Source: an uncultured Gemmatimonadales bacterium (GTDB lineage Bacteria; Gemmatimonadota; Gemmatimonadetes; Gemmatimonadales; GWC2-71-9). Taken from it: a DNA stretch of 64,000 bases. A program made the translations under genes and the position numbers. Under the pieces are notes generated by a model. That model was not told the DNA's origin. It saw only the letters and a list, made by a program, of their open reading frames with translations, and searched no databases. This document shows, in pieces, positions 1 through 34,752 of this stretch (positions within the stretch are counted from its first letter, which is position 1; each line of letters begins with the position of its first letter). The stretch spans positions 512,001 through 576,000 of the forward strand of contig CAVZZO010000001.1 in NCBI GenBank assembly GCA_963779755.1, read 5' to 3'.

Positions 1-633
1 GCGAAGGACGCGATCCGCGCCGGCGCGAAGGTCCTGGTGCACAGCGTCTTTTCCCAGCAGGTGGATGACGAGTTCATCCAGCTGGCCCGCGAGCACCATG
101 TGATCTACATCCCCACCCTGACGGTAGTGGAAGGTTATCCCAACATGTTCCTGGGTCTTCCGGCGGATTCCCTGCCGTATCCCGCGGGCTGCGTGGACTC
201 GCTTACCCGGGCCAAGCTGGCGAAAGGACTCCCCGATTCTCTGCGTCCAGTCTGGGCCCGGGGCCCGACGGCACACGCCCCGCCCAATCCCTCACTCCAG
301 AACGGCCTCGCCAACCTGAAGCGGGTACAGGATGCAGGGATTACCGTGGCCATGGGTACCGATGCGGGGAATCCCGGTACGCTGCACGGGCCGTCGGTCT
401 ATCGGGAAATGGACCTGATGCAGCAGGCCGGCCTCACCCCGATGCAGGTGCTGGTGGATGCCACCCGGAACGGGGCCGCAGCGATGGGGCGGGGCAGCGA
501 TTTTGGAACCCTGGAGCTCGGCAAGGCCGGCGACCTCGTGATTCTGGATGCGGATCCGCTTCGGGATATTGCCAACCTCCGGCGGGTGGACCGCGTGATC
601 AAAGGCGGTGTCGTGGTCTGGCCGCCACACTGA
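1..633 (+). CDS. Amidohydrolase family protein (5'-partial; frame open from window start)
   Basis: Frame 1 is open from base 1. Contains MGTDAG, G-T-L-E-x-G-K-x-G-D-L-V-I-L-D-x-D-P-L and VIKGG, typical of the amidohydrolase C-terminus. Confidence 0.85.
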   Translation, partial: AKDAIRAGAKVLVHSVFSQQVDDEFIQLAREHHVIYIPTLTVVEGYPNMFLGLPADSLPYPAGCVDSLTRAKLAKGLPDSLRPVWARGPTAHAPPNPSLQNGLANLKRVQDAGITVAMGTDAGNPGTLHGPSVYREMDLMQQAGLTPMQVLVDATRNGAAAMGRGSDFGTLELGKAGDLVILDADPLRDIANLRRVDRVIKGGVVVWPPH

Positions 634-730
634 TGGCCGCGAGGGGCAGGCCACCGGGAGCCCGCCACGGGGAAGCGTCCGGCTGGCCCTCCTTGTCGCC
701 GCGGCGCCACCCCGTCTGATTTCACGGTCG

Positions 731-2965: not shown

Positions 2966-4311
2966 AGAGCGGGCTCAATCGCCGTCGCTTTCTGCAATCT
3001 GGCACCGCCGCTGCAGGCGCTCTCGCTTTGATGTGGCGGCCGGTCGCCCCGTTCCTGCATGCGTCTCCCCCCGACCCCCGCCTCGACTGGTGGCGCGAGG
3101 CCCGGTTCGGGATATTCATCCACTGGGGCCTGTATTCCGTCCTGGCCGGCGAATGGGGCGGCCGGACCGATTACGCCGAGTGGATCCGGAACAACGCCCA
3201 CATTCCTCTGAAGGAGTACGACAAGCTCGTCGGCCGGTTCAATCCCGTCAGGTTCGATGCGGATCGGTGGATCGCTGCCGCCAAGGATGCCGGGGCCCAC
3301 TACGTCACCATCACCACCAAGCATCACGACGGCTTCTGCCTGTTCGATTCCCGGCAGACCGATTTCTGCATCCGCTCCACCCCGTTCCGGCGCGACATCA
3401 TGCGGGAGATCGCCGGCGCCTGCCGCCGGCAGGGGCTCATATCCTGCTGGTATCACTCCATCATGGACTGGCACCATCCCGACTACCTGCCAAGGCGCGA
3501 TTGGGAGGCGGAGACCCGGCCGGTGGACGGAGCGCGCTTCAGCCGGTATGTGGAATATCTCCACCGGCAGGTGGCCGAGTTGCTCCGGAGCTACGGCGAG
3601 ATCGGGGTTATGTGGTTCGACGGAAACTGGGAGGGCACCTGGACCCACGAAATGGGACTGGCGCTCTATCGTCACTGCCGCTCGCTGCAACCGGCCGTCA
3701 TCGTGAACAACCGGATCGAGGGCTGGTCGCCGATGCCGGTCACGGACAAGCTGGGCGATTTCGGCACGCCGGAGCAGCGGATTCCGGATATGGGGCTGCC
3801 GGGGGTGGACTGGGAATCCTGCATCACCATGAACGACAACTGGGGCTACAATCGGAACGATCATCACTTCAAGCCGGTGCCCCAGCTGATCGGGCTGCTG
3901 GTGGAGACCGCGTCGAAGGGTGGCAATCTGCTGCTCAACGTGGGGCCCAGGCCGGACGGGACGTTCCCGGAAGAGAGCGTCGAGGGGCTCAAGGGCATCG
4001 GCCGCTGGATGGCGGTGAACGGCGAGGCGATCTACGGCACCACGGCCTCGGTTTTCAAGGACGCGCCGTTCCGGTCCACCACCAAAGGGAACCACCTCTA
4101 TCTCTTTCTGGAGAAATGGCCGGAAGGCTCCCTGCTGCTGCCGGGACTGCGGACGCCGGTCCGCCAGGCGCGGCTCCTGGGGGATTCAGGGCGGCCGATC
4201 GCTGCGGCAGCGGCGGATAGCGGCGTGCACCTGACCCTGGCGGGTGCCGATCCCGAAGCGATCTGGCCGGTGGTGGCATTGGAGTTGGAGGGTGAGCCGC
4301 GTTTCTTCTGA
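2962..4311 (+). CDS. Alpha-L-fucosidase (GH29), Tat-exported
   Basis: GTG overlaps the kinase stop (GTGA). Tat motif NRRRFLQ. GH29 motifs RFGIFIHWG, KHHDGF, WFDG and WESCITMNDNWGY. Confidence 0.9.
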   Translation: MKSGLNRRRFLQSGTAAAGALALMWRPVAPFLHASPPDPRLDWWREARFGIFIHWGLYSVLAGEWGGRTDYAEWIRNNAHIPLKEYDKLVGRFNPVRFDADRWIAAAKDAGAHYVTITTKHHDGFCLFDSRQTDFCIRSTPFRRDIMREIAGACRRQGLISCWYHSIMDWHHPDYLPRRDWEAETRPVDGARFSRYVEYLHRQVAELLRSYGEIGVMWFDGNWEGTWTHEMGLALYRHCRSLQPAVIVNNRIEGWSPMPVTDKLGDFGTPEQRIPDMGLPGVDWESCITMNDNWGYNRNDHHFKPVPQLIGLLVETASKGGNLLLNVGPRPDGTFPEESVEGLKGIGRWMAVNGEAIYGTTASVFKDAPFRSTTKGNHLYLFLEKWPEGSLLLPGLRTPVRQARLLGDSGRPIAAAAADSGVHLTLAGADPEAIWPVVALELEGEPRFF

Positions 4312-4369: not shown

Positions 4370-7300
4370 TTACCGGAAGGCCGCACCCGCCCAGGTCCTC
4401 CGGGTTGGCGAAATGGTTCCCGCCGATTCGAAGGGGCCGCAGGCATCGTCGCTCACCTCGGCGCTGCCGAGGGCCAGAGTCGCCGCGTCGCGGTAGGCCA
4501 CCTGGCAGCCGGTGATCCGGGCGTAGGAGCCGCTGCTGTCGAAGCCGCCGGCGGTAACCACCAGCTCGGTGTGGATCTCCTGGAGGCCCTCGCCGGCGAC
4601 CAGCTCCCCGCCCGCCTCCGACAGCCCCAGCCAGAACATCTGCGACGGGAAACTGCCGAGCTGGTGGGGCGTGGGACTGGCCGTGCGGACCTCCCAGAGG
4701 GTGCCGCCGGTGGAGCGCATGTCCTGGGTGTAGCTCTTGCACAGGGCGCGCGGGTCGGTGGTGCCGGGGATGGTGTCGGTAAAGGGGCAGGGGAGCCAGG
4801 GGCCGGTGGTGGCGGCCGTGGTCGTCATCCGGTTCACCGCGACCACCACCCGACCGCCCCGGGGGTCGAAGGCCGGCCGGGCCGAGGCGACATCGCTCGC
4901 GGTGGTGAGGGCTGCGGTACACTCATAGGGGGTCACGGTGGACTGGCCGTTGATCACCGTGTCGCGGCGCTCCTGGCGGAAACAGTCGGAGCCCGAGCCG
5001 GGATTGACGGACACGGGCAGGCTGGTGAGGGAGGTCCAGCCCGGGTGGTAGAGGGAGTAGAGCTGGATATCGAAGCTGGTGGTGCTCCCGGCGGTGCTGC
5101 CCAGCACCCGCGGTGCTGCCCAGCACCCGCACGGCGCTGTCGTTGTCGTGCGAAACGAAGAGCGAGCTGAGATAGGTGCCGCCCCAGAGCGTATCGGGCA
5201 GGGTGAAGGGCGGCCCTTCCTGCCAGGATCGGGAGCCCGCGTCGTAGAGGAACTCCCGATCGAAGTTCTGCGCGCCCACCAGGTCTATCCGGCGGCCGCC
5301 ATGCCGCACGTTCACCAGGCCCGCGGCCTCGCCCAGATCGGCCAGCACTTCCACTCCGGTGCCGCGCCGGGCCAGGAGCTGGCCATGGGCGGTCCAGACG
5401 TGGGTGCCGCAGAGCGGGGTCCCGGGCCGCTCCCGGGAGAGCAGCGAGAGGGCGCCATAGGCGTCGAGCTGGTAGATGGATTCACTGCTGGGGAAGCCCG
5501 GCACCGGCTGGGCCGGCTCCACCTCTCCGGTGGTGGGGTTGAATTTCGGTTCCCGGGCGCCGCGGACGATGTAGTCCTTCACCTGGGCAGCGGTGAGTGT
5601 TGGATCCATGGCCCAGAGCAATGCGGCCACACCGGAGACGAACGGAGCGGCCAGGGAGGTGCCGTTGTCGGCTAGCACCCCTCCACCCGGAATGAGGCTC
5701 CCACGGCCTCGGCGGGAGCAGCTATGGCGGTGGCGCCCAGGAACAGGTTGGAATTGGCCCATTTCTGTCCCTGCATATTCGTGCCGGCCACGAACATGAT
5801 CTGATCCCGGAAGCGGGCGATCTCCGGCGGGGCGCCACTCTGGAAGGGAGTGATCAGAGCCTGCAGAAGGCCGAGGTTATCACCTCGTGCGGCGAGGATC
5901 TCGTCTATAGTGAAATCGCGTCCATTATTGTCCACGGATTGCACGATCAGGTTCCCCGCGGCGAGGTAGTCGTATAGGGCCTTCTTCATACGCTCCAACT
6001 CCTCGGGATCCGTACTCCCGACTGCCGCAGAGCTCTGGAGTACCCGTATGCCTCTGGCTGCTGCCGTGGGGAAGAGCTCGAGCACGAGATATCCCGTCAG
6101 ATCTTCTGGGATACTATCCCCAAGACCGTAAGCAAGCAGTTGGAGATTTGCTCCCCAAATCATTCCCGCTATCCCTTCCCCGTTGTTCCCATCGGCAGCC
6201 AATATCGAAGCCACCTGGGTTCCGTGCCGGAGACCTACCTCCGTCCTGTAGTAGCTGGGTGCGAACATGAGAGGTATCGAGCTGGGTCCAGACAGCGTGG
6301 CCGAGGAAAGGTCCTTCGACGGGTCGAAATGGAAATCAATTACGCCGATTCCAACCCGCCCACTAGTGTACGTGCCGGTTTCACAACCCCAGGCAAGCGG
6401 CGCACGGATTGCCAAGCGTGGGCGAGTCACATCCGTGGGTGTTACCCAGTCGCTACGTTGTGCGCCAATTCCGTCCACCGGGTGTTGGCTGTGGAACGTG
6501 ATTCCGCTGCGACGATGTACTGGGGCAGCGTAGTCGACACCGGATTCATCGTCATTCAAACGCCGCTTCAGCGCCTCATACGCTTCCCAACTGGCACCGG
6601 GATCCGGAACACGGACGAAGTATTCCTGCTGCGCTGGCCCCCCGCTGATAATCTCGGCACCATATCGCTGAAAGAGACTGCGGATTGTTCTTCCACTGGT
6701 GGTATCGTCGAACCGGATGACGAAAATATTCCGGTAGAAGACGTTCATTGTGTCCCCCGGCGGAGCAATGACAATCGTCGTATCCCGGGGGAAGATCCCG
6801 AGCGGTGGCACCGCCGGCCGGCTGGTATCCGCATCCGAGGCTTCGGCGTAGAGCACCAGCTGGAATCGCAGCACCCCCGAATGCACCGCCAACTCCACCC
6901 AGCGGATCTGCGACGTGTCCCCGGCCGCCAGCTCGTCCTGGGGCGGCTGGACCGCGAGCAGGGTGTCGTAGCGCCACAATACCGCACCCGGGAGGTGCGG
7001 AGCATCGGCCGCGAGCGCGGAGTCCGGATTCAGGAAGTTGAGGTAATCCGCGGTCCACTGGTTCTGGGCCAGGCCGGGCGCTTCCAGCACGGTCAAGCTG
7101 TCTTCCCAGCCATAAAGCCGGGCGGGCGCACGGAAGGGCTGCGCGGTCTGGTTGGCCAGGGCCAGGGGGAGGCGCACCCGGTCGGCCGGGCCGTCATACA
7201 CCGGGGCGCCGGCCAGGACCGGCCGCACGCCGCCGCAGGCGCCGCCCGAGGCGGTCACGAAGGCGCTGTCGTCGTCCACGGTGATGGTCTCCCTGCCCCG

Positions 7301-7471
7301 GACCTCCACCTGGAAGCGGGCACAGCCTTGCTGCGCGACGGGATAGATTGGGCCGAGCGGTTTCTGGAGGGCAGGGGCTAACGGGGTCCCCCGGCAGGCG
7401 AGCAGGGAGCCAAGCAGCAGGAGCACGCGGGCCTCACGAGGGGGGACAGGCACCCAGCGCGTTGGTGGCAC
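4370..7471 (-). pseudogene. S8 subtilisin-like lipoprotein, array copy A (two frameshifts)
   Basis: Collinear with intact copy C. One G is missing at about 5696 (GAGGCT vs GAGGGCT), giving a stop at 5672, and there is a 19-bp tandem duplication at 5091-5128. Lipobox LLAC; triad motifs VIDF, HGTQVA and GTSLAAP. Confidence 0.85.
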
Positions 7472-7531
7472 AGGACGTATCCGGAAGAGAAGTGGCCAGC
7501 GGTGATCACGGGGGACGGCCCTACCGGGGAT

Positions 7532-7559
7532 AGCCTACCGCTGGGAACGCGGTTGTCAA
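7532..7559 (-). promoter_or_regulatory. Sigma70-type promoter TTGACA-N16-TAGGCT for S8 copy A
   Basis: Perfect -35 box and TAnnnT -10 box, conserved at the same position upstream of all four copies. Confidence 0.7.
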
Positions 7560-7564
7560 GATCG

Positions 7565-7669
7565 GGTGAGCGGTCAGCGGTGAGCGGTGAGCGGTCAGCG
7601 GTGAGCGGTGAGCGGTCAGCGGTGAGCGGTGAGCGGTCAGCGGTGAGCGGTGAGCGGTCAGGGGTGAGC
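7565..7669. repeat. Heptamer VNTR (GGTGAGC/GGTCAGC) x15
   Basis: Counted directly; shows a 21-bp higher-order pattern. Confidence 0.95.
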
Positions 7670-7824
7670 GCGGGTCTCCTCTCGACCTATCGAGTGGCTG
7701 GGTCTCCGTCTTGAGGCTTGAAGCCCTCCAAGCGCCGCCGGCGCATCGATGGACAGGCTGAAGCCTGCCCTCGGCCTAACGATCCCTGAAGGGATGCCGG
7801 CAGGCGGGCGACGTCGCAGGCGCG
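7670..7824. repeat. Hairpin-rich inter-gene element of the S8 array, copy 1 (truncated by the copy B deletion)
   Basis: Near-identical to 9672-9826 and 13126-13280. Confidence 0.9.
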
Positions 7825-9487
7825 TCCCGGAAGCGGGCGATCTCCGCCGGGGCGCCGCTCTGGAAGGGAGTGATCAGAGTCTGCAGAAGCCCGAGGTTAT
7901 CACCTCGTGCGGCGAGGATCTCGTCTATAGTGAAATTGCGACCATTATTGTCCACGGATTGGACAAAGAGGTTGCCGGCAGCAAGGTACTGGTACAGCGC
8001 GTCCTTTATGCGCTGTAATTCGTACGGATACGTGCTCCCGATCGCGGCAGAACTGTGAAGTACGCGAACGCCTGCTGCCTGGGCACCTGGGAAGAGGTTG
8101 TTGGCCAGATAAGCGGTAATGTTGAGCGGAACGTCGCCACCTAGGCCATAGGCCAAGAGTTGGAGATCCGCCTTCCAGATCATCCCCGAAATGCCCTCGT
8201 GATTGTTTCCGTCTGCTGCCACGATCGAAGCCACCTGGGTTCCGTGTCGAAGGCCAACGGCAGTCGTAAAGTATGAAGGGGCTGGTGTCAAAGGTACGGA
8301 AGTGGGCTCCAGTAGGGTGGCAGAGGAGAAGTCTTTGGAGAGGTCGAAGTGGAAGTCGATTACTCCTACTTTGACTCGATTCGGGGTGTTGGTGCCCGTT
8401 TCGCAGCCCCAGGCGAGCGGGGCACGGATGGCCAAACGAGAGCGAGTGAAGTCGGTGGCTGTTGCCCAGTCTTGACGTTGTGCGCCAGGTCCGTCAAGCG
8501 GATATCGAGTGTGGAACGTGATTCCACTCCGATAGCTCATTGGGGCCGCATATCGTATCCCAGGTTCCATCTCATTGAGTTGCCGCATCAATCCGTCATA
8601 TGCTTCCCAACTGGAGCCCGGATCCGGGATCCGCACGATGTATTCTCTCGCATTTGACAGACCGCCGATAATCTCCGCTTGATAACGCTGAAAAAGACTG
8701 CGGATAGTGCTCCCGCTCGTAGAATCATCGAAGCGGATCCCAATGATGTTCCGGAAGAAGACATTCATCGTGTCACCAGGAGGTGCTGTGACTATCGTTG
8801 AGTCATATGGAAAGAACGCGCTGGGCGGAATCGCCGGCCTAGTGGTATCCGCATCCGAGGCTTCGGCGTAGAGCACCAGCTGGAACTTCAGCACCCCCGA
8901 GTGCACGGCCACCTCCACCCAGCGTACCTGTGACGTTGCGCCGCCAGCCAGCTCGTCTTTCGGCGGCTGTGCCGCCAGTAGCGTGTCATAGCGCCACAGC
9001 ACCGCGCCCGGCAGGCGCGGATCGGCGGCATCGAGCGCCGAGTCCGGATGCAGGAAGTTCAGGTAATCCGCGGTCCACTGGTTCTGGGCCAGGCCGGGCG
9101 CTTCCAGCACGGTCAGGCTGTCCTCCCAGCCGTAGAGCCGGGCGCACGGAAGGGCTGCGCGGTCTGATTGGCCAGGGCCAGGGGGAGGCGCACCCGGTCG
9201 GCCGGGCCATCATACACCGGGGAGCCAGCCAAGACCGGCCGCACGCCGCCGCAGGCAGCGCCCGATGCCGTCACGAAGGCGTTGTCGTCGTCTATGGTGA
9301 TGGTCTCCTTGCCCCGGACCTCGACCTCGAACCGGGCACAGCCCTGCTGGGCCACCGGATACACCGGGCCCAGGGGCTTCTGGGAGACCGGAGCCAGCGG
9401 AGTCCCCCGGCAGGCGAGGAGGGAGCAGAGGAGCAGAAGCATGGAGGTCTCACGAGAGGGGACGGGCAGCCGGCGCGTGGGCGGCAC
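7776..9487 (-). pseudogene. S8 subtilisin-like lipoprotein, array copy B (frameshift and 3' truncation)
   Basis: One GGGC unit is lost at about 9140. Homology stops at 7825 after EIARFRD, so the catalytic Ser and C-terminal domain are missing (about 1.46 kb deleted relative to copy C). Asp and His motifs are retained. Confidence 0.88.
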
Positions 9488-9547
9488 AGGACGTCTCCGG
9501 AAGAGAGGTCGCCGGTTGCAGATCAGGAGGACTGCCCTACCGGGGAT

Positions 9548-9575
9548 AGCCTACCGCTGGGAACGCGGTTGTCAA
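9548..9575 (-). promoter_or_regulatory. Sigma70-type promoter TTGACA-N16-TAGGCT for S8 copy B
   Basis: Same motif and spacing as the other copies. Confidence 0.7.
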
Positions 9576-9580
9576 GATCG

Positions 9581-9671
9581 GGTGAGCGGTCAGCGGTGAG
9601 CGGTGAGCGGTGAGCGGTCAGCGGTGAGCGGTGAGCGGTCAGCGGTGAGCGGTGAGCGGTCAGGGGTGAGC
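9581..9671. repeat. Heptamer VNTR (GGTGAGC/GGTCAGC) x13
   Basis: Counted directly. Confidence 0.95.
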
Positions 9672-9875
9672 GCGGGTCTCCTCTCGACCTATCGAGTGGC
9701 TGGGTCTCCGTCTCGAGGCTTGAAGCCCTCCAAGCGCCGCCGGCGGATCGGTGGACAGGCTGAAGCCTGCCCTCGGCCCGACGATCCCTGAAGGGATGCC
9801 GGCAGGCGGGCGACGTCGCAGGCGCGCCCACGGGTCGCCGCCGGAGTATGACCCCTGGAGCGGGAGGCGCGGGGG
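9672..9875. repeat. Hairpin-rich inter-gene element of the S8 array, copy 2
   Basis: Near-identical to 13126-13329. Contains GGCTTGAAGCC, CAGGCTGAAGCCTG and ATCCCTGAAGGGAT palindromes. Confidence 0.9.
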
Positions 9876-12800
9876 TTATCGCCCGGATACCCCGGCCCAC
9901 CTCCGGGTTGGCGAAATGGTTCCCGCCGATTCGAAGGGGCCGCAGGCATCGTCGCTCGCCTCGGCGCTGCCGAGGGCCAGGGTCACCGCGTCGCGGTAGG
10001 CCACCTGGCAGCCGGTGGTCCGGGCGTAGGAGCCGCTGCTGTCGAAGCCGCCGGCGGTAACCACCAGCTCGGTGTGAAGCTCCTGGATGCCCTCGCCTGC
10101 GACCAGCTCCCCGCCCGCTTCCGCCAGCCCCAGCCAGAACATCTGCGCCGGGAAACTGCCGAGCTGGTGGGGCGTGGGACTGGCCGTGCGGACCTCCCAG
10201 AGGGTGCCGCCGGTGGAGCGCATGTCCTGCGCGTAGCTCTTGCACAGGGCGCGCGGGTCGGTGGTGCCGGGGATGGTGTCGGTAAAGGGGCAGGGGAGCC
10301 AGGGACCGGTGGTGGCGGCGGTGGTGGTGAGCCGGTTGACCGCCACGACGATCCGGCCGCCCCGGGGGTCGAATGCCGTCCGGGCCGAGGCCACTTCGCT
10401 CGAGGTGGTGAGCGCCGCGGTACACTCGTAGGGGGTCACGGTGGGCTGGCCGTTGATTACGGTGTCGCGGCGCTCCTGGCGGAAACAGTCGGAGCCCGAG
10501 CCGGGATTGACGGACACGGGCAGGCTGGTGAGTGAGGTCCAGCCCGGGTGGTAGAGGGAGTAGAGCTGGATATCGAAGGTGGTGGTACTCCCGGTGGTGC
10601 TGCCCAGCACCCGCACCGCGCTGTCGTTGTCGTGGGAGACAATGAGCGAGCTGAGATAGGTGCCGCCCCAGAGCGTATCCGGCAGGGTGAAGGGCGGCCC
10701 CTCGTGCCAGGAACGGGAGCCCGCGTCGTAGAGGAACTCCCGATCGAAGTTCTGCGCGCCCACCAGGTCTATCCGGCGGCCGCCATGCCGCACGTTCACC
10801 AGGCCCGCGGCCTCGCCCAGATCGGCCAGCACTTCCACTCCGGTGCCGCGCCGGGCCAGGAGCTGGCCATGGGCGGTCCAGACGTGGGTGCCGCAGAGGG
10901 GGGTGCCGGGTCGCTCCCGGGAGAGCAGCGAGAGGGCGCCATAGGCGTCGAGCTGGTAGATGGATTCACTGCTGGGGAAGCCCGGCACCGGCTGGGCCGG
11001 CTCCACCTCTCCGGTGGTGGGGTTGAATTTCGGTTCCCGGGCGCCGCGGACGATGTAGTCCTTCACCTGGGCAGCGGTGAGTGTTGGATCCATGGCCCAG
11101 AGCAATGCGGCCACACCGGAGACGAACGGAGCGGCCAGGGAGGTGCCGTTGTCGGCTAGCACCCCTCCACCCGGAATGAGGGCTCCCACGGCCTCGGCGG
11201 GAGCAGCTATGGCGGTGGCGCCCAGGAACAGGTTGGAATTGGCCCATTTCTGTCCCTGCATATTCGTGCCGGCCACGAACATGATCTGATCCCGGAAGCG
11301 GGCGATCTCCGGCGGGGCGCCGCTCTGGAAGGGGGCGATCAGAGCCTGCAAAAGGCCGAGGTTATCACCTCGTGCGGCGAGGATGTCGTCGACAGTGAAA
11401 TCGCGTCCATTATTGTCCACGGATTGGACGATAAGGTTGCCAGCTGCCAGATAGTCATACAGGGCATGCTTCAATCGATCGACTTGATATGGGACGGTGC
11501 TTCCGACGGCCGCAGAGCTGTGTAGGATCTGGACTCCCTCGGCTTGCGCAGTTGGGAGAAGAGTCGCAGTGAGGTAATCGGTAATATCTTCCGGTACACT
11601 GTCACCATGGCCATAAGCAAAGAGATGGAGATCCGATCCCCAGATCATCCCGGCAATCCCTTTCATGTTGTTCCCGTCGGCCGCCAAAATGGACGCAACC
11701 TCCGTCCCATGCCGCAACCCAACGTCGGTAGTGTAATAACTGGGTGCTGGGACCAGAGGAAACCGCGCCGGTTCAGAGAGCGTAGCTGATGACAAGTCGA
11801 ATGAGGGATCGAAATGGAAGTCAATCACCCCCGCTCTAATACGTTCGTTGGTATACATGCCAGTTTCACAGCCCCATGCTAACGGTGCGCGGATCGCCAT
11901 TCGCGAACGCGTCACGTCTGTAGGCAATAACCAGTCACCACGCCCTGCACCGGTTCCATCTACCGGATAGCGGGTGTGAAATGTAATTCCGCTTCGGCGA
12001 CTCATCGGGGATGCATAGTCAAGACCGGGTTCCTCGTCATTGAGGCGGTGCAATAGCGCCTCGTATGCTTCCCAAGTTGGTCCAGGATCGGGAACGCGAA
12101 CGACATATTCTTCATTCGCTGGCCGGCCGCCGATGATCTCTGCATCGTATCGCTGAAAAAGGTCTCGGACTGTCACGCCGCCTGTAGAATCATCAAAGCG
12201 GATCACGAAGATGTTTCGATAGAAGACATTGACGGTGTCCCCCGGCGGAGCAATGACAATCGTCGTATCCCGGGGGAAGATGTCGAGCGGCGGCACCGCC
12301 GGGCGGCTGGTATCCGCATCTGAGGCTTCGGCATAGAGCACCAGCTGGAATCGCAGCACCCCCGAATGCACCGCCACCTCCACCCAGCGGATCTGCGAAG
12401 TATCCCCGGCCGCCAACTCGTCCTGGGGCGGCTGGGCCGCGAGCAGCGTGTCATAGCGCCACAGCACCGCGCCCGGCAGGCGCGGATCGGCGGCATCGAG
12501 CGCCGAGTCCGGATGCAGGAAGTTCAGGTAGTCCGCGGTCCACTGGTTCTGGGCTAGGCCGGGCGCTTCCAGCACCGTCAGGCTGTCCTCCCAGCCGTAG
12601 AGCCGGGCGGGCGCACGGAAGGGCTGCGAGGTCTGATTGGCCAGGGCCAGGGGGAGGCGCACCCGGTCGGCCGGACCGTCATACACCGGCGCCCCGGCCA
12701 GGACGGGCCGCACGCCGCCACACGCGGCGCCCGAGGCGGTCACGAAGGCGCTGTCGTCGTCCACGGTGATGGTCTCCCTGCCCCGGACCTCCACCTGGAA

Positions 12801-12956
12801 GCGGGCACAGCCTTGCTGCGCCACCGGATAGACCGGGCCGAGCGGTTTCTGGAGGGCCGGGGCTAGCGGGGTCCCCCGGCAGGCGAGCAGGGAGCAGAGG
12901 AGCAGGAGCATGCGGGCCTCACGTGAGGGGACAGGCACCCAGCCCGTTGGTGGCAC
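9876..12956 (-). CDS. S8 subtilisin-like serine protease lipoprotein, array copy C (intact)
   Basis: Lipobox LLAC, prodomain-like segment (RNIFVIRFDD...AEIIGG...YVVRVP), triad GVIDF / HGTEVASILAA / GTSLAAPFVSG, Cys-rich C-terminal domain. GTG start chosen by alignment with copies A and B. Confidence 0.9.
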   Translation of the reverse strand: MPPTGWVPVPSREARMLLLLCSLLACRGTPLAPALQKPLGPVYPVAQQGCARFQVEVRGRETITVDDDSAFVTASGAACGGVRPVLAGAPVYDGPADRVRLPLALANQTSQPFRAPARLYGWEDSLTVLEAPGLAQNQWTADYLNFLHPDSALDAADPRLPGAVLWRYDTLLAAQPPQDELAAGDTSQIRWVEVAVHSGVLRFQLVLYAEASDADTSRPAVPPLDIFPRDTTIVIAPPGDTVNVFYRNIFVIRFDDSTGGVTVRDLFQRYDAEIIGGRPANEEYVVRVPDPGPTWEAYEALLHRLNDEEPGLDYASPMSRRSGITFHTRYPVDGTGAGRGDWLLPTDVTRSRMAIRAPLAWGCETGMYTNERIRAGVIDFHFDPSFDLSSATLSEPARFPLVPAPSYYTTDVGLRHGTEVASILAADGNNMKGIAGMIWGSDLHLFAYGHGDSVPEDITDYLTATLLPTAQAEGVQILHSSAAVGSTVPYQVDRLKHALYDYLAAGNLIVQSVDNNGRDFTVDDILAARGDNLGLLQALIAPFQSGAPPEIARFRDQIMFVAGTNMQGQKWANSNLFLGATAIAAPAEAVGALIPGGGVLADNGTSLAAPFVSGVAALLWAMDPTLTAAQVKDYIVRGAREPKFNPTTGEVEPAQPVPGFPSSESIYQLDAYGALSLLSRERPGTPLCGTHVWTAHGQLLARRGTGVEVLADLGEAAGLVNVRHGGRRIDLVGAQNFDREFLYDAGSRSWHEGPPFTLPDTLWGGTYLSSLIVSHDNDSAVRVLGSTTGSTTTFDIQLYSLYHPGWTSLTSLPVSVNPGSGSDCFRQERRDTVINGQPTVTPYECTAALTTSSEVASARTAFDPRGGRIVVAVNRLTTTAATTGPWLPCPFTDTIPGTTDPRALCKSYAQDMRSTGGTLWEVRTASPTPHQLGSFPAQMFWLGLAEAGGELVAGEGIQELHTELVVTAGGFDSSGSYARTTGCQVAYRDAVTLALGSAEASDDACGPFESAGTISPTRRWAGVSGR

Positions 12957-13016
12957 AGGAGATCTCGGGAAGAGGAGTGGCCGGTAGTGGATCATGGACA
13001 CGGCCCTGCTGCGGAT

Positions 13017-13044
13017 AGCCTACCGCTGGGACCGCGGCTGTCAA
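13017..13044 (-). promoter_or_regulatory. Sigma70-type promoter TTGACA-N16-TAGGCT for S8 copy C
   Basis: Hexamers conserved while spacer bases differ from copies A and B. Confidence 0.7.
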
Positions 13045-13049
13045 GATCG

Positions 13050-13125
13050 GGTGGCGGTCAGCGGTGAGCGGTCAGCGGTGAGCGGTGAGCGGTCAGCGGT
13101 GAGCGGTGAGCGGTCAGGGGTGAGC
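13050..13125. repeat. Heptamer VNTR (GGTGAGC/GGTCAGC) x11, first unit degenerate
   Basis: Counted directly. Confidence 0.95.
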
Positions 13126-13329
13126 GCGGGTCTCCTCTCGACCTGTCGAGTGGCTGGGTCTCCGTCTCGAGGCTTGAAGCCCTCCAAGCGCCGCCGGCGG
13201 ATCGGTGGACAGGCTGAAGCCTGCCCTCGGCCCGACGATCCCTGAAGGGATGCCGGCAGGCGGGCGACGTCGCAGGCGCGCCCACGGGTCGCCGCCGGAG
13301 TATGACCCCTGGAGCGGGAGGCGCGGGGG
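13126..13329. repeat. Hairpin-rich inter-gene element of the S8 array, copy 3
   Basis: Near-identical to 9672-9875. Confidence 0.9.
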
Positions 13330-16314
13330 TTATCGCCCGGATATCCCGGCCCACCTCCGGGTTGGCGAATAGGAGCCGCTGCTGTCGAAGCCGCCGGCGG
13401 TAACCACCAGCTCGGTGTGGATCTCCTGGAGGCCCTCGCCGGCGACCAGCTCCCCGCCCGCCTCCGCCAGCCCCAGCCAGAACATCTGCGCCGGGAAACT
13501 GCCGAGCTGGTGGGGCGTGGGACTGGCCGTGCGGACCTCCCAGAGCGTGCCGCCGGTGGAGCGGACATCCTGCGTGTAGCTCTTGCAGAGGGCGCGCGGG
13601 TCGGTGGTGCCGGGGATGGTGTCGGTAAAGGGGCAGGGGAGCCAGGGGCCGGTGGTGGCGGCCGTGGTCGTCATCCGGTTCACCGCGACCACTACCCGAC
13701 CGCCCCGGGGGTCGAAGGCCGGCCGGGCCGAGGCGACATCGCTCGCGGTGGTGAGGGCCGCGGTACACTCATAGGGGGTCACGGTGGGCTGGCCGTTGAT
13801 CACCGTGTCGCGGCGCTCCTGGCGGAAACAGTCGGAGCCGGAGCCGGGATTGACGGATACCGGCAGGCTCGTGAGCGAGGTCCAGCCCGGGTGGTAGAGG
13901 GAGTAGAGCTGGATGTCGAAGGTGGTGGTGCTGCTGCCGAGCACCCGGACGGCGCTGTCGTTGTCGTGGGAGACAAAGAGCGAGCTGAGATAGGTGCCGC
14001 CCCAGAGGGTGTCGGGGAGGGTGAAGGGCGTTCCTTCCTGCCAGGATCGGGAGCCCGCGTCGTAGAGGAATTCCCGATCGAAGTTCTGCGCTCCCACCAG
14101 GTCTATCCGGCGCCCGCCGTGACGCACGTTCACCAGGCCCGCGGCCTCGCCCAGCTCGGCCAGGACCTCGACCCCGCTGCCCTGGCGGGCCAGGAGCTGG
14201 CCATTGGCGGTCCAGACGTGGGTGCCGCAGAGGGGGGTGCCGGGCCGCTCCCGGGAGAGCAGCGAGAGGGCGCCGTAGGCGTCGAGCTGGTAGACTCCGG
14301 GCGGTCCAGCTCCCAGCTGCTGCGGAGTAACCATGGTTCCTGTTTGCGGGTCGAATCTTGGGACCTGCGCGCCACGGAGGAGGAGGTCCTTGACCTGGAC
14401 CGCTGTAAGGGTCGGGTCGAACGTCAAGAGTTGGGCGATGGCCCCTGCCACGAACGGTGCGGAGTAGGAGGTACCGGTTCGAACGGAGGTCCCGCCGGGG
14501 AAATCATTGATTCGCGCCAGCGTTTCGATATCCACGGCTGGCGCGGCGATCTGGGTGGCTCCCTCCCAGACGTTGGAAGAGGCATAGTAGTTAGACCCAT
14601 CAGCGCCCGCGACGAAGATGATCTGTCCGGGGTAGCGGGAATAGAGCCGGGCAGCCGCCGCATCCAGGGCCGTCGCACGCGCGTCCTGTGTTGTCTGAAG
14701 TGCTGAGACGGAAATTACGGCACTATAATTCCCCGTGGCCATTACGAATGTGTTGCTGGGACTTGCAGACAGGTACCCTTCCAGTGCCTCAGCCAGCCGT
14801 GAGACGTGGGTCGTATCTTTGATAAACCCGGCCCCCACTGAGGTTAGCAGTACGGGAATACCAGCTCTTGCAGCACTGTCGAAGACTACAGTAAGGCGGC
14901 TAACAGGATCGTTCACCACGACCGTATCGTGGCCGTAGGCAAACAGATGCAGGTCACCGCCCCAGACCATGCCAGCAATGCCCTCCCCGTTGTCGCCGGT
15001 TGCAGCCAGAATGCCCGCGACAGCAGTACCGTGTGAACGGTATATGGCCCCGGCGGTCGCGTTGCCGTCGGGGGTCGGATCGGTCAGGAAGGCGCTGGGG
15101 ATTGTCGGTGCTGTGGGGAGTACTAAATGGATCTGCGATCCTTGAAAGTCTGGATGTGCGTTATCAAAGGTGAAATCAATGACACCAAGGCGTGCCTCTG
15201 TATTGGTGTAAGCGCCAGTCTCACAGCCCCAGGCCAAAGGGGCACGGACGGACATCCAAGGTCGGAGAGAAGGTGATCCCAAAACCCAATCCGCTCTCCT
15301 GTGCGATACCCCATCGATTGGAAGCCGGTACCGTGGGTCGAGCTTTCCTCGATAAGTGACTCCTGACACCCAGCGAACGGCGGGTTCCCTCACGATCATA
15401 TTGCGCAACGATTCCAAGTCTTCCCATCTGGTGCCGGGGTCAGGCACCTGAATCAGGTACGTACCATACCTGCCCTCCTGGGGTATGCCCCCAATGATCG
15501 TTGCGTGGTACCGTTGTAGAACCGTGCGAATGGCTGGTCCGGTTGCTGAATCCTCAAAGGCGACAATTAAGATGTTCCGGAAGTACAGGACACTTGCGTC
15601 ATCAGGATGGGGAACAACCAACGTGCTATCGAACGGATACGGGCCCACCGGGGGTACCGCAGGCCGGCTAGTATCCGCGTCCGCCGCCTCGGCATAGAGT
15701 ACCAGCTGGAACTTCAGCACCCCTGAGTGCACCGCCAGCTCCACCCAACGCACCTGCGAACTCGCGCCCGCCGCAAGCTCGTCCTTGGGCGGCTGGGCCG
15801 AGAGCAGCGTGTCGTAGCGCCACAGGACCGCGCCGGGAAGCTGCGGGTCAGTGGCATCGAGCGCGGAGTCCGGGGACAGGAAATCGAGGTAGTCCGCGGT
15901 CCATTCATTCTGGGCCAGGCCCGGCGCTTCCAGCACCGTCAGGCTGTCCTCCCAGCCGTAGAGCCGGGCCGGGGCGCGGAAGGGCTGTGCGGTCTGGTTG
16001 GCCAGAGCCATTGGAATGCGTACCCGGTCGGCCGGGCCGTCATAGACCGGGGTTCCCGCCAGCACCGGCCGCACTCCGCCACAGGCGGCGCCCGAGGCGG
16101 TCACGAAGGCGCTGTCGTCCTCCACCGCGATAGTTTCCTTGCCCCGGACCTCCACCTGGAAGCGGGCGCAGCCCTGCTGGGCCACCGGATAGACCGGGCC
16201 GAGCGGTTTCTGGAGGGCCGTCCCTGGTTTCCCACGGCAGGCAAGGAGGGAGCAGAGGAGCAAGAGGATGCACGGCTCGAGGGAGCGGTCGGGCAAACGC
16301 CGCGTTGGCGCCAC
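13330..16314 (-). CDS. S8 subtilisin-like serine protease lipoprotein, array copy D (most divergent core; in-frame 37-codon C-terminal deletion)
   Basis: Lipobox LLAC, triad GVIDF / HGTAVAGILAA / GTSYSAPFVAG, oxyanion motif ATGN. Flanks near-identical to copy C. Start may instead be ATG 16320. Confidence 0.88.
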   Translation of the reverse strand: MAPTRRLPDRSLEPCILLLLCSLLACRGKPGTALQKPLGPVYPVAQQGCARFQVEVRGKETIAVEDDSAFVTASGAACGGVRPVLAGTPVYDGPADRVRIPMALANQTAQPFRAPARLYGWEDSLTVLEAPGLAQNEWTADYLDFLSPDSALDATDPQLPGAVLWRYDTLLSAQPPKDELAAGASSQVRWVELAVHSGVLKFQLVLYAEAADADTSRPAVPPVGPYPFDSTLVVPHPDDASVLYFRNILIVAFEDSATGPAIRTVLQRYHATIIGGIPQEGRYGTYLIQVPDPGTRWEDLESLRNMIVREPAVRWVSGVTYRGKLDPRYRLPIDGVSHRRADWVLGSPSLRPWMSVRAPLAWGCETGAYTNTEARLGVIDFTFDNAHPDFQGSQIHLVLPTAPTIPSAFLTDPTPDGNATAGAIYRSHGTAVAGILAATGDNGEGIAGMVWGGDLHLFAYGHDTVVVNDPVSRLTVVFDSAARAGIPVLLTSVGAGFIKDTTHVSRLAEALEGYLSASPSNTFVMATGNYSAVISVSALQTTQDARATALDAAAARLYSRYPGQIIFVAGADGSNYYASSNVWEGATQIAAPAVDIETLARINDFPGGTSVRTGTSYSAPFVAGAIAQLLTFDPTLTAVQVKDLLLRGAQVPRFDPQTGTMVTPQQLGAGPPGVYQLDAYGALSLLSRERPGTPLCGTHVWTANGQLLARQGSGVEVLAELGEAAGLVNVRHGGRRIDLVGAQNFDREFLYDAGSRSWQEGTPFTLPDTLWGGTYLSSLFVSHDNDSAVRVLGSSTTTFDIQLYSLYHPGWTSLTSLPVSVNPGSGSDCFRQERRDTVINGQPTVTPYECTAALTTASDVASARPAFDPRGGRVVVAVNRMTTTAATTGPWLPCPFTDTIPGTTDPRALCKSYTQDVRSTGGTLWEVRTASPTPHQLGSFPAQMFWLGLAEAGGELVAGEGLQEIHTELVVTAGGFDSSGSYSPTRRWAGISGR

Positions 16315-16375
16315 AGGCATTTCCGGGGAGAGGTGGGCCGGCGACCGATCCAGGGACACCTGCTCTACTGGTGTG

Positions 16376-16403
16376 AGCCTACCGCCGGGAACGCGGCTGT
16401 CAA
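16376..16403 (-). promoter_or_regulatory. Sigma70-type promoter TTGACA-N16-TAGGCT for S8 copy D
   Basis: Same motif; only one heptamer-like unit (GGTGAGT) lies next to it. Confidence 0.7.
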
Positions 16404-16498: not shown

Positions 16499-19273
16499 AT
16501 GACGGACATGGCAGGCCGCCTCGACGCGGCCCTCGCCGGCCGCTACCGCATCGAGCGTGAGCTCGGCCAGGGCGGCATGGCCACGGTCTACCTGGCGCAG
16601 GACCTCAAACACGACCGCCGGGTGGCGCTCAAGGTCCTGCGGCCGGATCTCGCGGCCATCCTGGGGCCGGAGCGCTTCCTCAAGGAAATCCGTCTCACCG
16701 CCAACCTGCAGCACCCGCATATCCTGCCGCTGCTGGATTCCGGTCAAGTTGAAGGGACCTGGCTGGTCGAAGGTCAAAGGTCGAAGGTCGAAGGGGAGAG
16801 TCCACGTACCGCCATACCGCCCTACCGCCATACCGCCCTGTTCTACGTCATGCCCTTCGTCGAGGGCGAGTCGCTCCGCGACCGGCTCTCCCGGGAGCAC
16901 CAGCTGGGCATTGACGAGGCTGTGCGCATCGCCACCGAGGTGGCGGACGCCCTGAGCTACGCCCACGGACAGGGAGTGATCCACCGGGACATCAAGCCGG
17001 AGAATATCCTGCTCTACGGCGGCCACGCGCTGGTGGCGGATTTCGGGATCGCGCTGGCGGCCAGCCGCTCGGAAGGCGCCGCGCGGATTACCGAGACCGG
17101 CATCAGTCTGGGAACCCCGGCGTACATGGCGCCGGAGCAGGCCATGGGCGAGCGGGACCTTACCCCCCGGGCCGATATCTATTCCCTGAGCTGCGTCCTG
17201 TATGAGATGCTGGCCGGCGACCCGCCGTTCCAGGGCGGCTCGGCTCAGGCGATCGTGGCCAAGGTGCTGACCGAGCGCGCCCCGCTGGTTTCGGCGGGGC
17301 GGGAGACGGTGCCGCGACACATCGCCGCCGCGGTCCACAAGGGCCTTGCCCGCCTGCCCGCCGACCGGTTTCCCACCGCGGCGGCGTTTGCGGATGCGCT
17401 GGCGCGTCCAGGTTTGAGTTCCGGGCCCGATACGATACCGCTGCAGCCTGGGGAGATGTCTTCCGCCGGTTTCCTCCGACGCTACGCCGCGGTGCTGGGA
17501 CTGTCGGCGGCCTTGGTCCTGCTGCTGGCCTTTGTGCTCGGGAGCCGGTCGCGGAGGCCTCCGCCCGGCCCGCTCCTGCGCATTCCGGTCGCGCTTCCGG
17601 AGGGACAGGGCATCGCCCTCGGGGCTGGTCCCGCCGTTGCGCTTGCCCCCGATGCATCCCGCCTGGTGTATCTCGGGGCAACACCCAATGGCGTGCAACT
17701 CCGCCTATGGTCGCTGAACTCGCTCGCTACGGATTCCATCCCCGGGACCGCCGGGGCGGCGGGGCCGGTATTCTCACCCGACGGCAGGTCCCTCGCATTC
17801 TGGCAAGACGGGGTCCTGAAGTCCTTGTCCCTTCAGGGCGGCCTGGGGGTGGAGGTCGCCGATTCCGCCACTATTCTGGGAGACGACTGGGGTCCCGACG
17901 GCTATATCTACTATGCCCGCGCCGGTGACAGACCAGGTATCTCGCGAGTTCGCGCGACAGGCGGGCCGCCCGAGATCGTCAGCACCGCCGATACCAGCCG
18001 GGGCGAGACCGATCACCGCTGGGTCAGCGTGCTGCCGAACGGCCGAGGGGTGTTGTTCACCGCGTGGCGCGGCAACTACGACCGGTCGGACATCGAGATC
18101 GCAGATTTTGGAAACGGCCGTACCAGAGTTCTCACCAAAGGCATCTTCGCGCGGGTTGCTCCCACCGGCTATCTCATCGTGATCAAGGGCGACCACAGCC
18201 TCTGGGCGGCCCCGTTCGATCTGGGTGCCCTGAAGCTTTCGGGGCGGGAAGTGCCCCTGCTCAAGGGGGTCAACGTCAAGAACGGAGGGGCCTCGGATCT
18301 TTCCCTGGCCAGGAGCGGCACACTGGCCTACGTCACCGGGGAAACACCGGTAGAGGAGTTGGTGTGGGTGGCCCGGGACGGCTCGGAGCAGGCGATAGAT
18401 CCGGCACTGCGCGGGAACTTCGGCTCGGTTGCCCTTTCGCCGGACGGGAGCCGCATCGCGTTGAGCAACTGGGCGGAGTCCTCGGAAAACCTCTGGATCT
18501 ATGATGTCGCCCGCCGGGCCCTCTCCCGCCTGACCTTCGACGGCGTGCGGAACCGCCGGCCGGAATGGAGCCTGGACGGAGCGAGCATCACGTATTCCTC
18601 GGATCGTGCCGGTGAGCTGACGCTCTGGCGCGTCTCGGCCGACGGTGGCGCTCCGGTCCCGGTCCTCCCGGCCTCGGTGCACGATCAGGCTCAGGAGGCC
18701 ACCTGGACGCCCGATGGCGCGTTGCTGGTCTTTCGCCGCGGACCGGGGGGAGGCGGCAGCCCCGACCTGATGGTGTTTCGCCCCGGCCGTGACAGCCTTG
18801 CCCGCCCACTGCTGACTTCGCGTTTCTCGGAGTTCGCGCCCCACCTGTCTCCCGATGGCCGCTGGCTCGCGTATGTATCGAATGAGTCCGGCCGCCGGGA
18901 GGTCTATGTCCGGTCCTTCCCGGAGACCGGTGGAAAATGGCAGGTTTCAACGGACGGGGGGGCCGAGCCGGTCTGGAGCCGGAGCGGCGAGGAGTTGTTC
19001 TATCGGTCGGCGGACGGGGAATTGATGTCGGCCTCGGTCCGGCAACAACCGTCGTTCGCGGTCCTCTCACGGCGGGCCCTCTTCTCTGCCTCGGGCTACG
19101 CCACGGATGAGGGCCACGCCTTGTACGGGGTTACTCCCGACGCACAGCACTTCCTCATGGTAAAGGTGCTCAAGGGCACCCCCGGAGAGCCGGACCTTGG
19201 CGCCAGGGCATATCAGCTGGTCCTTGTCCTCAACTGGTTCCAGGACCTGACCCGCGCCGAATCACGGCGGTGA
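16499..19273 (+). CDS. Ser/Thr protein kinase with transmembrane helix and PD40/TolB-like beta-propeller
   Basis: GQGGMATVY, HRDIKPEN, ADFG, GTPAYMAPEQ, a hydrophobic segment, multiple SPDG repeats and terminal VLNWF. Confidence 0.92.
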   Translation: MTDMAGRLDAALAGRYRIERELGQGGMATVYLAQDLKHDRRVALKVLRPDLAAILGPERFLKEIRLTANLQHPHILPLLDSGQVEGTWLVEGQRSKVEGESPRTAIPPYRHTALFYVMPFVEGESLRDRLSREHQLGIDEAVRIATEVADALSYAHGQGVIHRDIKPENILLYGGHALVADFGIALAASRSEGAARITETGISLGTPAYMAPEQAMGERDLTPRADIYSLSCVLYEMLAGDPPFQGGSAQAIVAKVLTERAPLVSAGRETVPRHIAAAVHKGLARLPADRFPTAAAFADALARPGLSSGPDTIPLQPGEMSSAGFLRRYAAVLGLSAALVLLLAFVLGSRSRRPPPGPLLRIPVALPEGQGIALGAGPAVALAPDASRLVYLGATPNGVQLRLWSLNSLATDSIPGTAGAAGPVFSPDGRSLAFWQDGVLKSLSLQGGLGVEVADSATILGDDWGPDGYIYYARAGDRPGISRVRATGGPPEIVSTADTSRGETDHRWVSVLPNGRGVLFTAWRGNYDRSDIEIADFGNGRTRVLTKGIFARVAPTGYLIVIKGDHSLWAAPFDLGALKLSGREVPLLKGVNVKNGGASDLSLARSGTLAYVTGETPVEELVWVARDGSEQAIDPALRGNFGSVALSPDGSRIALSNWAESSENLWIYDVARRALSRLTFDGVRNRRPEWSLDGASITYSSDRAGELTLWRVSADGGAPVPVLPASVHDQAQEATWTPDGALLVFRRGPGGGGSPDLMVFRPGRDSLARPLLTSRFSEFAPHLSPDGRWLAYVSNESGRREVYVRSFPETGGKWQVSTDGGAEPVWSRSGEELFYRSADGELMSASVRQQPSFAVLSRRALFSASGYATDEGHALYGVTPDAQHFLMVKVLKGTPGEPDLGARAYQLVLVLNWFQDLTRAESRR

Positions 19274-19289: not shown

Positions 19290-20120
19290 GCTTTCGCCGG
19301 GGCTCTCGACTGCGAATGGCTTGAGTGAATCCACAGATTACACAGATTGACACGGATTGCGCTCCGCGCTGTGGCAACGCTCCACCAAGGCCGGCCTGAA
19401 CCCCCACATAGCACAGCAATTCTCACTTGTTCGAAGGCCCGGCAAGGCCCTACGGAGCGACGCCGGAAATCGGAGCAGAATCTGTGTGACTCTGTGTAAT
19501 CTGTGGATCCCCCTGCTGTTGCTGAGCTCAGCCCTGGCCGGATGCGAGCTAACAGGGCACATGATGGTGGGGCGGGGCTTGCGCCGGGCCCGTCGAACGC
19601 GAATGGCTTGAGTGAATCCACAGATTACACAGATTGACACGGACTGCGCTCCGCGCTGTGGCAACACTCCACCAAGGCCGTTCCTGAGCACCCACAAAGC
19701 ACAGCAATTCTCATTTGTTCGAAGGCCCGGCAAGGCTCCACGGAGCGACGCCGGAAATCGGAGCAGAATCTGTGTGAATCTGTGTAATCTGTGGATCCCC
19801 CTGCTGTTGCTGAGCTCAGCCCTGGCCGGATGCGAGCTGACAGGGCACATGATGGTGGGGCGGGGCTTGCGCCAGGGCTCTCGACTGCGAATGGCTTGAG
19901 TGAATCCACAGATTACACAGGTTGACACGGATTGCGCTCCGCGCGGTGGCAACGCTCCACCAAGGCCGTTCCTGAGCACCCACAAAGCACAGCAATTCTC
20001 ATTTGTTCGAAGGCCCGGCAAGGCTCCACGGAGCGACGCCGGAAATCGGAGCAGAATCTGTGTGAATCTGTGTAATCTGTGGATCCCCCTGCTGTTGCTG
20101 AGCTCAGCCCTGCCTGGATG
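19290..20120. repeat. Tandem repeat with 287-288 bp period, about 2.9 copies, each containing a 30-bp inverted repeat pair
   Basis: GCGAATGGCTTGAGTG recurs at 19312, 19599 and 19887. IR arms ATCCACAGATTACACAGATT... and ...AATCTGTGTAATCTGTGGAT. Confidence 0.95.
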
Positions 20121-25578: not shown

Positions 25579-25731
25579 TTTCACCTCTGAGGTAATGGGC
25601 AAGAATACGTTAGCTCATTACCGAGGGTTTCGCACCCGGGGTGGTGCCCGGGGCGCATACTGCCGCCCGTCCCACTTCGCTACATTCCGATCATTCCCAC
25701 ACAGCCGCGCTTTTCTCCTTCAGGGGAGCCC

Positions 25732-34680: not shown

Positions 34681-34752
34681 GAGAGGGACGAGAGGGTCGA
34701 GAGGGTCGAGAGGGTCGAGAGGGTCGAGAAGGCTGAGAGGGTCGAGGGCGAC
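34681..34752. repeat. 9-bp tandem repeat (GAGAGGGTC) x8 between convergent genes
   Basis: Counted directly; four consecutive perfect units. Confidence 0.9.

Follow-up and report, generated by a model that had tools for sequence, protein, structure and literature searches.

Tandem S8 proteases of Gemmatimonadota with an exchanged prodomain-plus-catalytic cassette: a candidate polymorphic surface protease family with free prodomain genes

Stand-alone propeptide inhibitors of subtilisins are known, an example being streptococcal Spi. In Plasmodium, the stand-alone prodomain-like protein SUB1-ProM inhibits selectively (PMC6993865), and POIA1 is a stand-alone propeptide inhibitor of the I9 family (PDB 1v5i). 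The closest known variable modules are those of the Rhs, CDI and MafB polymorphic toxins with orphan modules. Tips are displaced in Rhs (PMC2935791), the variable parts are low in GC, and further modules, cognate or not, are lined up downstream (see also PMC3150448). In the S8-PTS of Gram-positive bacteria, it is a BetaH toxin that is polymorphic, and its immunity proteins are unrelated; the S8 peptidase is a separate protein with a proposed role in processing (PMC9424270). The KLIKK proteases of Tannerella are clustered secreted enzymes with different catalytic domains and a near-identical terminal region, adjoined by lipoprotein inhibitors that protect the surface (PMC4404884; PMC9890683).

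Here we analyze a tandem array of S8 protease genes and its relatives. A search of the openly accessible literature found no description of this protease family or arrangement. Our best reading is a polymorphic, predicted surface protease that is exchanged by homologous recombination and has putative immunity derived from its own prodomain. The analysis also brought to light free prodomain genes at 15 non-redundant loci.

Genes, modules and variable cores of the array

The window, i.e., the whole 64,000-nt stretch analyzed (G000:C1:512001-576000), belongs to a 4.23-Mb genome of 68.6% GC. It contains four minus-strand S8 paralogs (A to D), flanked by Ser/Thr kinase genes and a fucosidase gene. 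The four tandem same-strand copies noted in a preliminary description of this DNA were recovered, and a fifth copy (E) was located outside the window, 1 kb to its left (G000:C1:506447-510957). The features of the array are as follows (window positions).

13330..16359, minus strand: copy A, a 1009-aa S8 protease and predicted lipoprotein, with an in-frame 111-bp deletion near the 3' end and a core of separate origin
14295..15650, minus strand: core of A (prodomain and whole catalytic domain, from the DTxRP to the YQLDAYG motif), 41-44% aa identity to B-E, GC4 0.59-0.69, short-read contigs in agreement with 0-2 mismatches
13002..13329, no strand: A-B spacer, bearing a 7-bp tandem array at 13050-13126 and near-identical in sequence to the other spacers
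9876..13001, minus strand: copy B, 1041 aa, intact
11427..12290, minus strand: variable block of B, spanning the prodomain, the catalytic Asp and His and the next two helices, GC4 0.58, fourfold sites random versus every other copy
10958..11426, minus strand: 3' half of the catalytic domain of B (Asn, Ser), homogenized with D (98% aa, 92/92 fourfold sites) and E (85% aa)
9488..9875, no strand: B-C spacer, with a 7-bp tandem array at 9581-9672
7826..9487, minus strand: copy C, carrying a core allele of its own and, near 9140, a 4-bp deletion; it breaks off at about 7826, where it is fused to the spacer, and lacks the catalytic Ser and the C domain
7472..7825, no strand: C-D spacer, whose 5' part is gone together with the 3' end of C, with a 7-bp tandem array at 7565-7670
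4370..7471, minus strand: copy D, carrying a core allele of its own; a C run near 5690 has a 1-bp deletion, and a 19-bp duplication lies at 5091-5130

As assembled, B is the only whole copy; A has lost its 111 bp in frame, and C, D and E (3/5) are broken. Copy E is interrupted by a 1382-bp insertion bearing a 401-aa transposase-like ORF, which we take to be IS256-like. The deletion and the duplication in D may be real lesions or long-read errors. An Rfam search of the window gave no matches, and a search of 40 relatives returned one distant full homolog (in genome G039) and no close ortholog.

Copy B consists of a signal with LLAC, a beta-rich N domain, a prodomain (about residues 232-343), a subtilisin fold (344-697) and a beta-propeller (703-1035); the C termini of the proteins comprise the propeller followed by WAGxSGR. 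In the structure model of B (mean pLDDT 79.8), residues 344-697 matched 3vv3 with Z 33.0 and rmsd 2.3 over 280 aligned residues, which identifies the subtilisin fold, and the propeller gave Z 13.7, rmsd 4.1 and 206 aligned residues. PF00082 was matched with 68.1 (A) and 64.5 bits (B) against a cut-off of 21.8. The active-site residues of B are D394, H431, the oxyanion N530 and S621, of which H431 and S621 are invariant in 54/54 rows; the acid position is occupied by Glu in 21/72 family cores. Based on profile, modelled fold, and the predicted triad with the oxyanion Asn, these proteins belong to Peptidase S8 (subtilases). The genes are predicted to encode surface lipoproteins, a call made by eye from a hydrophobic stretch ending in LLAC, with uncertain start codons. 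The N domain had no match in Pfam, and its leads in the Atlas were all below 0.9 (CBM-like, 0.76-0.81); the fold search with the whole model barely probed this domain. A PDB sequence search with the prodomain profile gave a best E of only 0.2.

The flanks had been described as near-identical in DNA. The proteins are 86-96% identical there, and the DNA is 80-95% identical, with patchy tracts of 100%. Between copies, the N flank (~200 codons) has an aa identity of 0.86-0.95 and a fourfold-site identity of 0.60-0.82, and the C flank 0.94-0.96 and 0.78-0.88, respectively. The core block, from the prodomain to just before the oxyanion Asn, is 68-73% identical in aa among B-E and 41-44% between A and the others, and its fourfold-site identity (0.23-0.34) is at the random level in 10/10 pairs. 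GC4 is 0.56-0.63 in this block versus 0.87-0.97 in the flanks. Both the synonymous divergence and the AT-richness claimed for the core are therefore real, and the hand counts of GC on which the latter had rested (23/60, 27/60 and 46/60) were right on recount. The heavy divergence claimed for the entire prodomain-plus-protease span applies to A only. B-E share about 70% of their residues. The variable block of B, D and E includes the prodomain and the catalytic Asp and His and stops before the oxyanion Asn and the catalytic Ser. In the 3' half of the catalytic domain, B equals D at 92/92 fourfold sites, E is largely alike, and only A differs. Variability among B-E peaks in the helix after the catalytic His (18/25 sites) and in the next helix.

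Informative flank sites are clustered in tracts (12 runs versus 24.7 after shuffling in the C flank; 33 versus 45.8 in the N flank), which argues that gene conversion does operate among the copies; within this array, it homogenizes both the flanks and a portion of the catalytic domain. In the cores, dN lies well below dS and no domain-wide signal of positive selection was found; the cores are under purifying selection.

Could the pattern be an assembly collapse or chimera, a risk already named in the preliminary description? The small indels of C and D resemble long-read errors, and 1-kb repeats of >90% identity can mislead assemblers. However, the flanks differ between copies at many sites, the same architecture recurs in independent assemblies, and short-read contigs from other runs match the cores and cross two flank/core joints with 1-2 mismatches. 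A contig of run X3 spans the joint of A (15572-15722, 2 mismatches), one of run X1 spans that of B (12209-12417, 1 mismatch), and the core of A is matched by contigs of three runs with 0-2 mismatches; the reads were too sparse for any whole gene to be spanned. An artefact of this kind is hardly credible.

Reassortment and base composition in the family

Word-based searches yielded a family census of 63 proteins and 98 loci, and a locus scan with one peptide pattern placed 26/26 loci from named genomes in Gemmatimonadota. Fourteen near-duplicate loci, together with L088 and L115 (frameshifted pieces of full genes), were left out before counting, and pairs sharing a slot or a core were pre-filtered by requiring 200 bp of DNA to match at 72%.

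Several relatives carry different cores in the same slot. L059 and L070 share 93-97% of their DNA over about 20 kb and 91% (N) and 94% (C) of the aa in the flanks, but only 42/48% in the core; the corresponding values are 86-88% over 20 kb and 39/44% for L033/L035, and 87-89% and 34/40% for L055/L102. Conversely, similar cores occur within other flanks. L034 and L090 share a core (93/89%, with 90% of its fourfold sites) next to N and C parts of 79% and 43% identity, L029 and L033 have cores 77% alike and unrelated N parts, and L072 and L085 are 76-79% identical in the core versus 24% (N) and 40% (C). In relatives, as in A, the DTxRP and YQLDAYG motifs mark the points at which identity is lost and regained, i.e., the edges of the prodomain and the catalytic fold. 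Breakpoints are fuzzy where cores resemble each other. L038 is an independent three-copy tandem array, with flanks of 93-100% and cores of 64-77% identity, in which the core ends before the catalytic Ser as in B and D.

The idea that the prodomain is swapped together with the protease agrees with the identity correlations: over 1176 non-independent pairs of 49 genes, the catalytic domain correlated with the prodomain at r = 0.70, with the C part at 0.34 and with the N part at 0.19. When N identity was ≥60%, catalytic identity was ≥55% in 5/60 pairs, and among pairs with similar catalytic domains the prodomain was also similar in 11/15, the N part in 4/15 and the C part in 2/15 (again, pairs are not independent). 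The trees of flanks and cores, whose comparison had been suggested as a check, are incongruent. In a quick tree of 33 selected rows, the core of A groups with L029/L033, apart from B-E (a 72-row tree agrees), and the AU test on the same 33 rows rejects a single clade of the window cores (p 2e-6). These comparisons demonstrate, at the level of sequence, modular mosaicism in the array and the family, linkage of prodomain and catalytic domain, and fixed domain-edge breakpoints between distant cores. Exchange of the prodomain-plus-catalytic cassette between constant flanks, originally proposed for this array, is well supported across the family by the reciprocal slot and core comparisons, the shared two-motif breakpoints and the tree incongruence.

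One might instead regard the copies as old tandem paralogs evolving in concert, with flanks homogenized by local conversion, no import of cores, and free prodomains (see below) left as deletion relics. The clustered informative sites, the 100% tracts between copies, and the cores of B-E, which form one clade with star-like 68-73% identity, would all suit this explanation, but the core of A groups with L029/L033, orthologous single-copy slots carry different cores, and the free prodomains have their own signal peptides, saturated synonymous sites and conserved protein sequences. We consider it improbable. As a full account, concerted evolution is contradicted by the exchange seen in relatives and by the core tree; it stays part of the account for B-E.

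Targeted hypermutation of the core (DGR-like or other) or site-specific cassette exchange by a recombinase, as in an integron or shufflon, could explain the near-uniform base composition at core fourfold sites and the recurrence of breakpoints at two motifs. Such a mechanism appears very improbable, given that near-identical cores are found in different genomes (such as L034/L090, with their 90% fourfold identity), that dS relates to dN as in ordinary divergence, and that breakpoints between similar cores are not sharp. Moreover, no site-specific recombinase or reverse transcriptase was detected among the 102 immediate neighbor proteins of 30 loci (two genes per side; NCBIfam at a strict E of 1e-25, many proteins having no match).

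To our knowledge, the cause of low GC in polymorphic modules is usually assumed and seldom tested. The low GC of the core, likened in the preliminary description to that of such modules, is real, but it is a property of the whole family and bears no sign of a foreign donor. GC4 is lower in the core than in the N flank in 71/78 non-redundant genes (median gap 0.20; the dip is missing in 7/78), with family medians of 0.87 (N), 0.69 (prodomain), 0.68-0.72 (catalytic) and 0.80 (C). In the genome of the window, 58 kinase genes and one further S8 gene served as controls and gave 0.77-0.98; a genome-wide scan for internal GC dips was swamped by non-coding in-frame leaders and provided no clean null. 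Since the dip is family-wide, it is not a donor signature; nor does anything point to a GC-poor donor, since single-copy genes show the dip as well and every named host is GC-rich. It may be that old divergent alleles, barred from allelic recombination, drift toward mutational bias and become GC-poor. The homogenized catalytic half, whose GC4 is 0.77-0.84 in B, D and E versus 0.69 in A, fits this idea. Recombination rate correlates with GC in 119/146 bacterial species, although the cause is debated (10.1101/2024.05.31.596828). Because all named carriers are GC-rich and yet have GC-poor cores, the family can separate a foreign donor from exclusion from recombination as explanations, and the low GC of polymorphic modules could be examined here with no donor involved.

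Free prodomain genes and the proposed explanation

Searching with the prodomain profile revealed protease-free prodomain ORFs beside an S8 gene, amounting to 26 units in 15 non-redundant loci. A locus has one unit or a row of as many as four. Most units have their own signal peptide, and their ends lie no more than a few residues from where maturation is predicted; 42 more small proteins (58-217 aa) match the profile. No free prodomain gene was found with this profile in the genome of the window itself. Only 12/51 loci with enough downstream DNA have such a gene, so it is not obligatory. One free protein (P0068) resembles PF22148/I9 prodomains (Atlas features 0.91, TM 0.55-0.58), and the free ORF of L039 matched PF22148 with 24.8 bits (cut-off 21), as did 0/3 other free ORFs. 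Based on these profile and model matches, the free genes are predicted to encode the prodomain fold alone, with an I9-like structure.

The core of the same locus ranked first of 85 for one unit in 12/15 loci, with a margin over the next core of 1-4 points in 7 of these loci and 6-14 points in 5. For 14/26 units, the top-ranked core was not that of their own locus. One unit of L070 is 81% identical to the prodomain of the L059 core, which is the allele at the same slot of a relative, and one of L074 is 67% identical to a core of the syntenic L039. Free prodomains are often saturated at fourfold sites at 55-74% aa identity (e.g., 14/54, 4/30 and 6/29). A complex predicted without alignments for the L074 unit and the neighboring catalytic domain scored 0.01.

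We propose that these are three-module S8 proteases, predicted to be surface lipoproteins, whose cassette is likely exchanged by homologous recombination via the flanks and whose prodomain is predicted to be an allele-matched inhibitor; we assign this reading a probability of about 60%. Homologous recombination through the constant flanks would move the central prodomain-plus-catalytic cassette, as suggested by the fuzzy breakpoints at similar cores and the lack of a recombinase among the neighbors analyzed. Distant cores could cross over only in the flanks, and consequently the entire cassette would move, as in copy A. Closer cores would also convert inside the catalytic domain, with the block from the prodomain to the post-His helices staying linked (B-E, L038), probably because the two helices after the catalytic His are the docking face of the prodomain, as in subtilisin structures. 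The existence of helices at 104-116 and 133-144 of subtilisin was confirmed. The prodomain would then serve as the allele-matched inhibitor within the cassette; the idea of a cognate inhibitor, put forward in the preliminary description, gains indirect support from the free prodomain genes next to the protease at 15 loci. In the manner of orphan immunity genes, free secreted prodomains would shield the surface of the cell against both the resident protease and kin alleles. As a best guess, the proteases target surface proteins of neighboring cells. Counting against this reading are the genome of the window, in which no free prodomain gene was found, the minority of loci that have one, the narrow margins in 7 of the 12 cognate cases, the three of five array copies broken as assembled, the lack of a positive-selection signal in the core and the seven genes without the GC dip.

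More tentatively, and at somewhat less than even odds, these parts may form a full kin-conflict system throughout Gemmatimonadota, with a swapped subtilase cassette, built-in self-immunity and libraries of free prodomains against kin alleles.

A quite different explanation involves no conflict between cells. The genes would encode surface proteases with a nutritional or housekeeping function, whose substrate range was diversified as modules shuffled by ordinary recombination, and free prodomains would be self-regulators or trans folding helpers. Purifying selection on the cores, the CBM96 domain at the N terminus of many relatives, the location of the protease genes among housekeeping genes, and the majority of loci without a free prodomain are in line with it, as is SUB1-ProM, which is a self-regulator (PMC6993865). 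On the other hand, for more than half of the units (14/26) the best-ranked core is from another locus, and several resemble the core that a relative has at the corresponding slot (the L070-L059 and L074-L039 pairs above). Mere self-regulation would not call for non-matching units in arrays of as many as four. We judge this explanation unlikely, though it deserves more weight than those discussed in the preceding sections.

In the family as we read it, the usual rule is reversed, with an exchangeable catalytic domain and constant accessory domains. If the free prodomains inhibit in an allele-specific way, a folding chaperone has taken on the role of immunity. The little-cultured but abundant phylum Gemmatimonadota would then have a first candidate antagonism system, equivalent among proteases to the toxin-immunity systems of bacteria, and proteases paired with their inhibitors would be available as a natural library.

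Comparison with known systems

The family shares with Rhs, CDI and MafB a variable module decoupled from the constant part, probable exchange by homologous recombination and low-GC variable parts, as far as the accessible descriptions of those systems go. The free prodomains at some loci are candidate counterparts of their downstream arrays, in which modules may be cognate or not. The variable module here lies within the protein, between two constant arms and followed by a propeller, whereas theirs is a C-terminal tip. In addition, it has one constant enzyme fold and is replaced in place rather than displaced downstream, and the enzyme's prodomain, encoded in cis and sometimes free, takes the place of a putative immunity protein. 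No delivery system was found, and any toxicity is putative. In its operation the family would resemble polymorphic toxin-immunity systems; where its variable module sits places it outside that class.

Similar to the S8-PTS in the text available on it, an S8 peptidase lies in a polymorphic locus. However, the S8 protein itself is the polymorphic part here, and the neighbors in the window are Ser/Thr kinases and a fucosidase, which sets the two apart by gene content. KLIKK proteases and potempins are comparable in having different catalytic domains on a near-constant region and an inhibitor gene adjoining the protease, which in the present family is putative and occurs at some loci. Nevertheless, in the accessible descriptions KLIKK enzymes comprise several protease classes sharing only the C-terminal part, potempins are beta-barrels unrelated to prodomains, and neither allele exchange nor orphan inhibitors are found for KLIKK (PMC4404884; PMC9890683). 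The C termini of the present proteins consist of the propeller and WAGxSGR instead of a T9SS domain with the KLIKK ending, and the free proteins are PF22148/I9-like instead of beta-barrels. Finally, SUB1-ProM, POIA1 and Spi have in common with this family a free prodomain-like gene next to a subtilase; those inhibitors are single and conserved, whereas the free prodomains described here form polymorphic arrays that appear to track exchangeable cores.

Kinase genes around the protease array

The array of minus-strand S8 proteases is located amid Ser/Thr kinase genes that lie on the opposite strand. Approximately 25 such genes, each encoding ~900 aa and all on one strand, occupy a 110-kb stretch of the contig (G000:C1:428955-540431), and a crude scan detected 58 Ser/Thr kinase genes in the whole genome. 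Within the window, the stretch includes the following intervals:

608-2965, kinase stretch
16499-19273, kinase stretch
25591-28431, kinase stretch

Repeats in the window

Several kinds of repeats were also identified:

19290-20132, 288-bp intergenic unit, 2.9 tandem copies, 94% alike
43533-44005, 115-bp palindromic, REP-like unit, 4.1 tandem copies, 95% alike
7565-7670, 9581-9672 and 13050-13126, and also 34681-34746 and 38192-38284, short intergenic tandem arrays with units of 7, 9 and 11 bp
63810-64000 (window edge), 60-65 bp repeats spaced 79-86 bp apart

The 288-bp tandem repeat had no match in a search against Rfam, and the 7-bp tandem unit was found again at several further sites in the genome.

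Catalytic residues and domain composition of relatives

Among 72 family cores (prodomain plus catalytic part), Glu replaces the catalytic Asp in 21, including those at loci L027, L028, L031, L039, L074, L084 and L102 of relatives, which suggests a Glu-His-Ser triad in part of this S8 family. In some members (L085 at 178-3273, L059, L070, L052 and L081), the N module is a different protease-like domain: that of L085 is a second S8 domain, and that of L070 appears, when its sequence is read by eye, to contain a trypsin-like stretch. Many other family members carry CBM96. Moreover, L037, L052, L096 and L116 have long ORFs that each hold two or three in-frame prodomain units, and these are possibly proteases with extra fused prodomains.

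Free prodomains and their neighbours

At L070, a gene for a 295-aa predicted lipoprotein (12714-13601) lies between the protease gene and the free prodomain gene, which encodes a prodomain without a protease; this lipoprotein gene is missing at the corresponding place in L059. In the ESM Atlas, Thermodesulfobacteriota and Bacteroidota also have clusters of small proteins made up of a prodomain alone, and of lipoproteins (PF22148, I9). Thus, free prodomains may be more widespread than the S8 family studied here.
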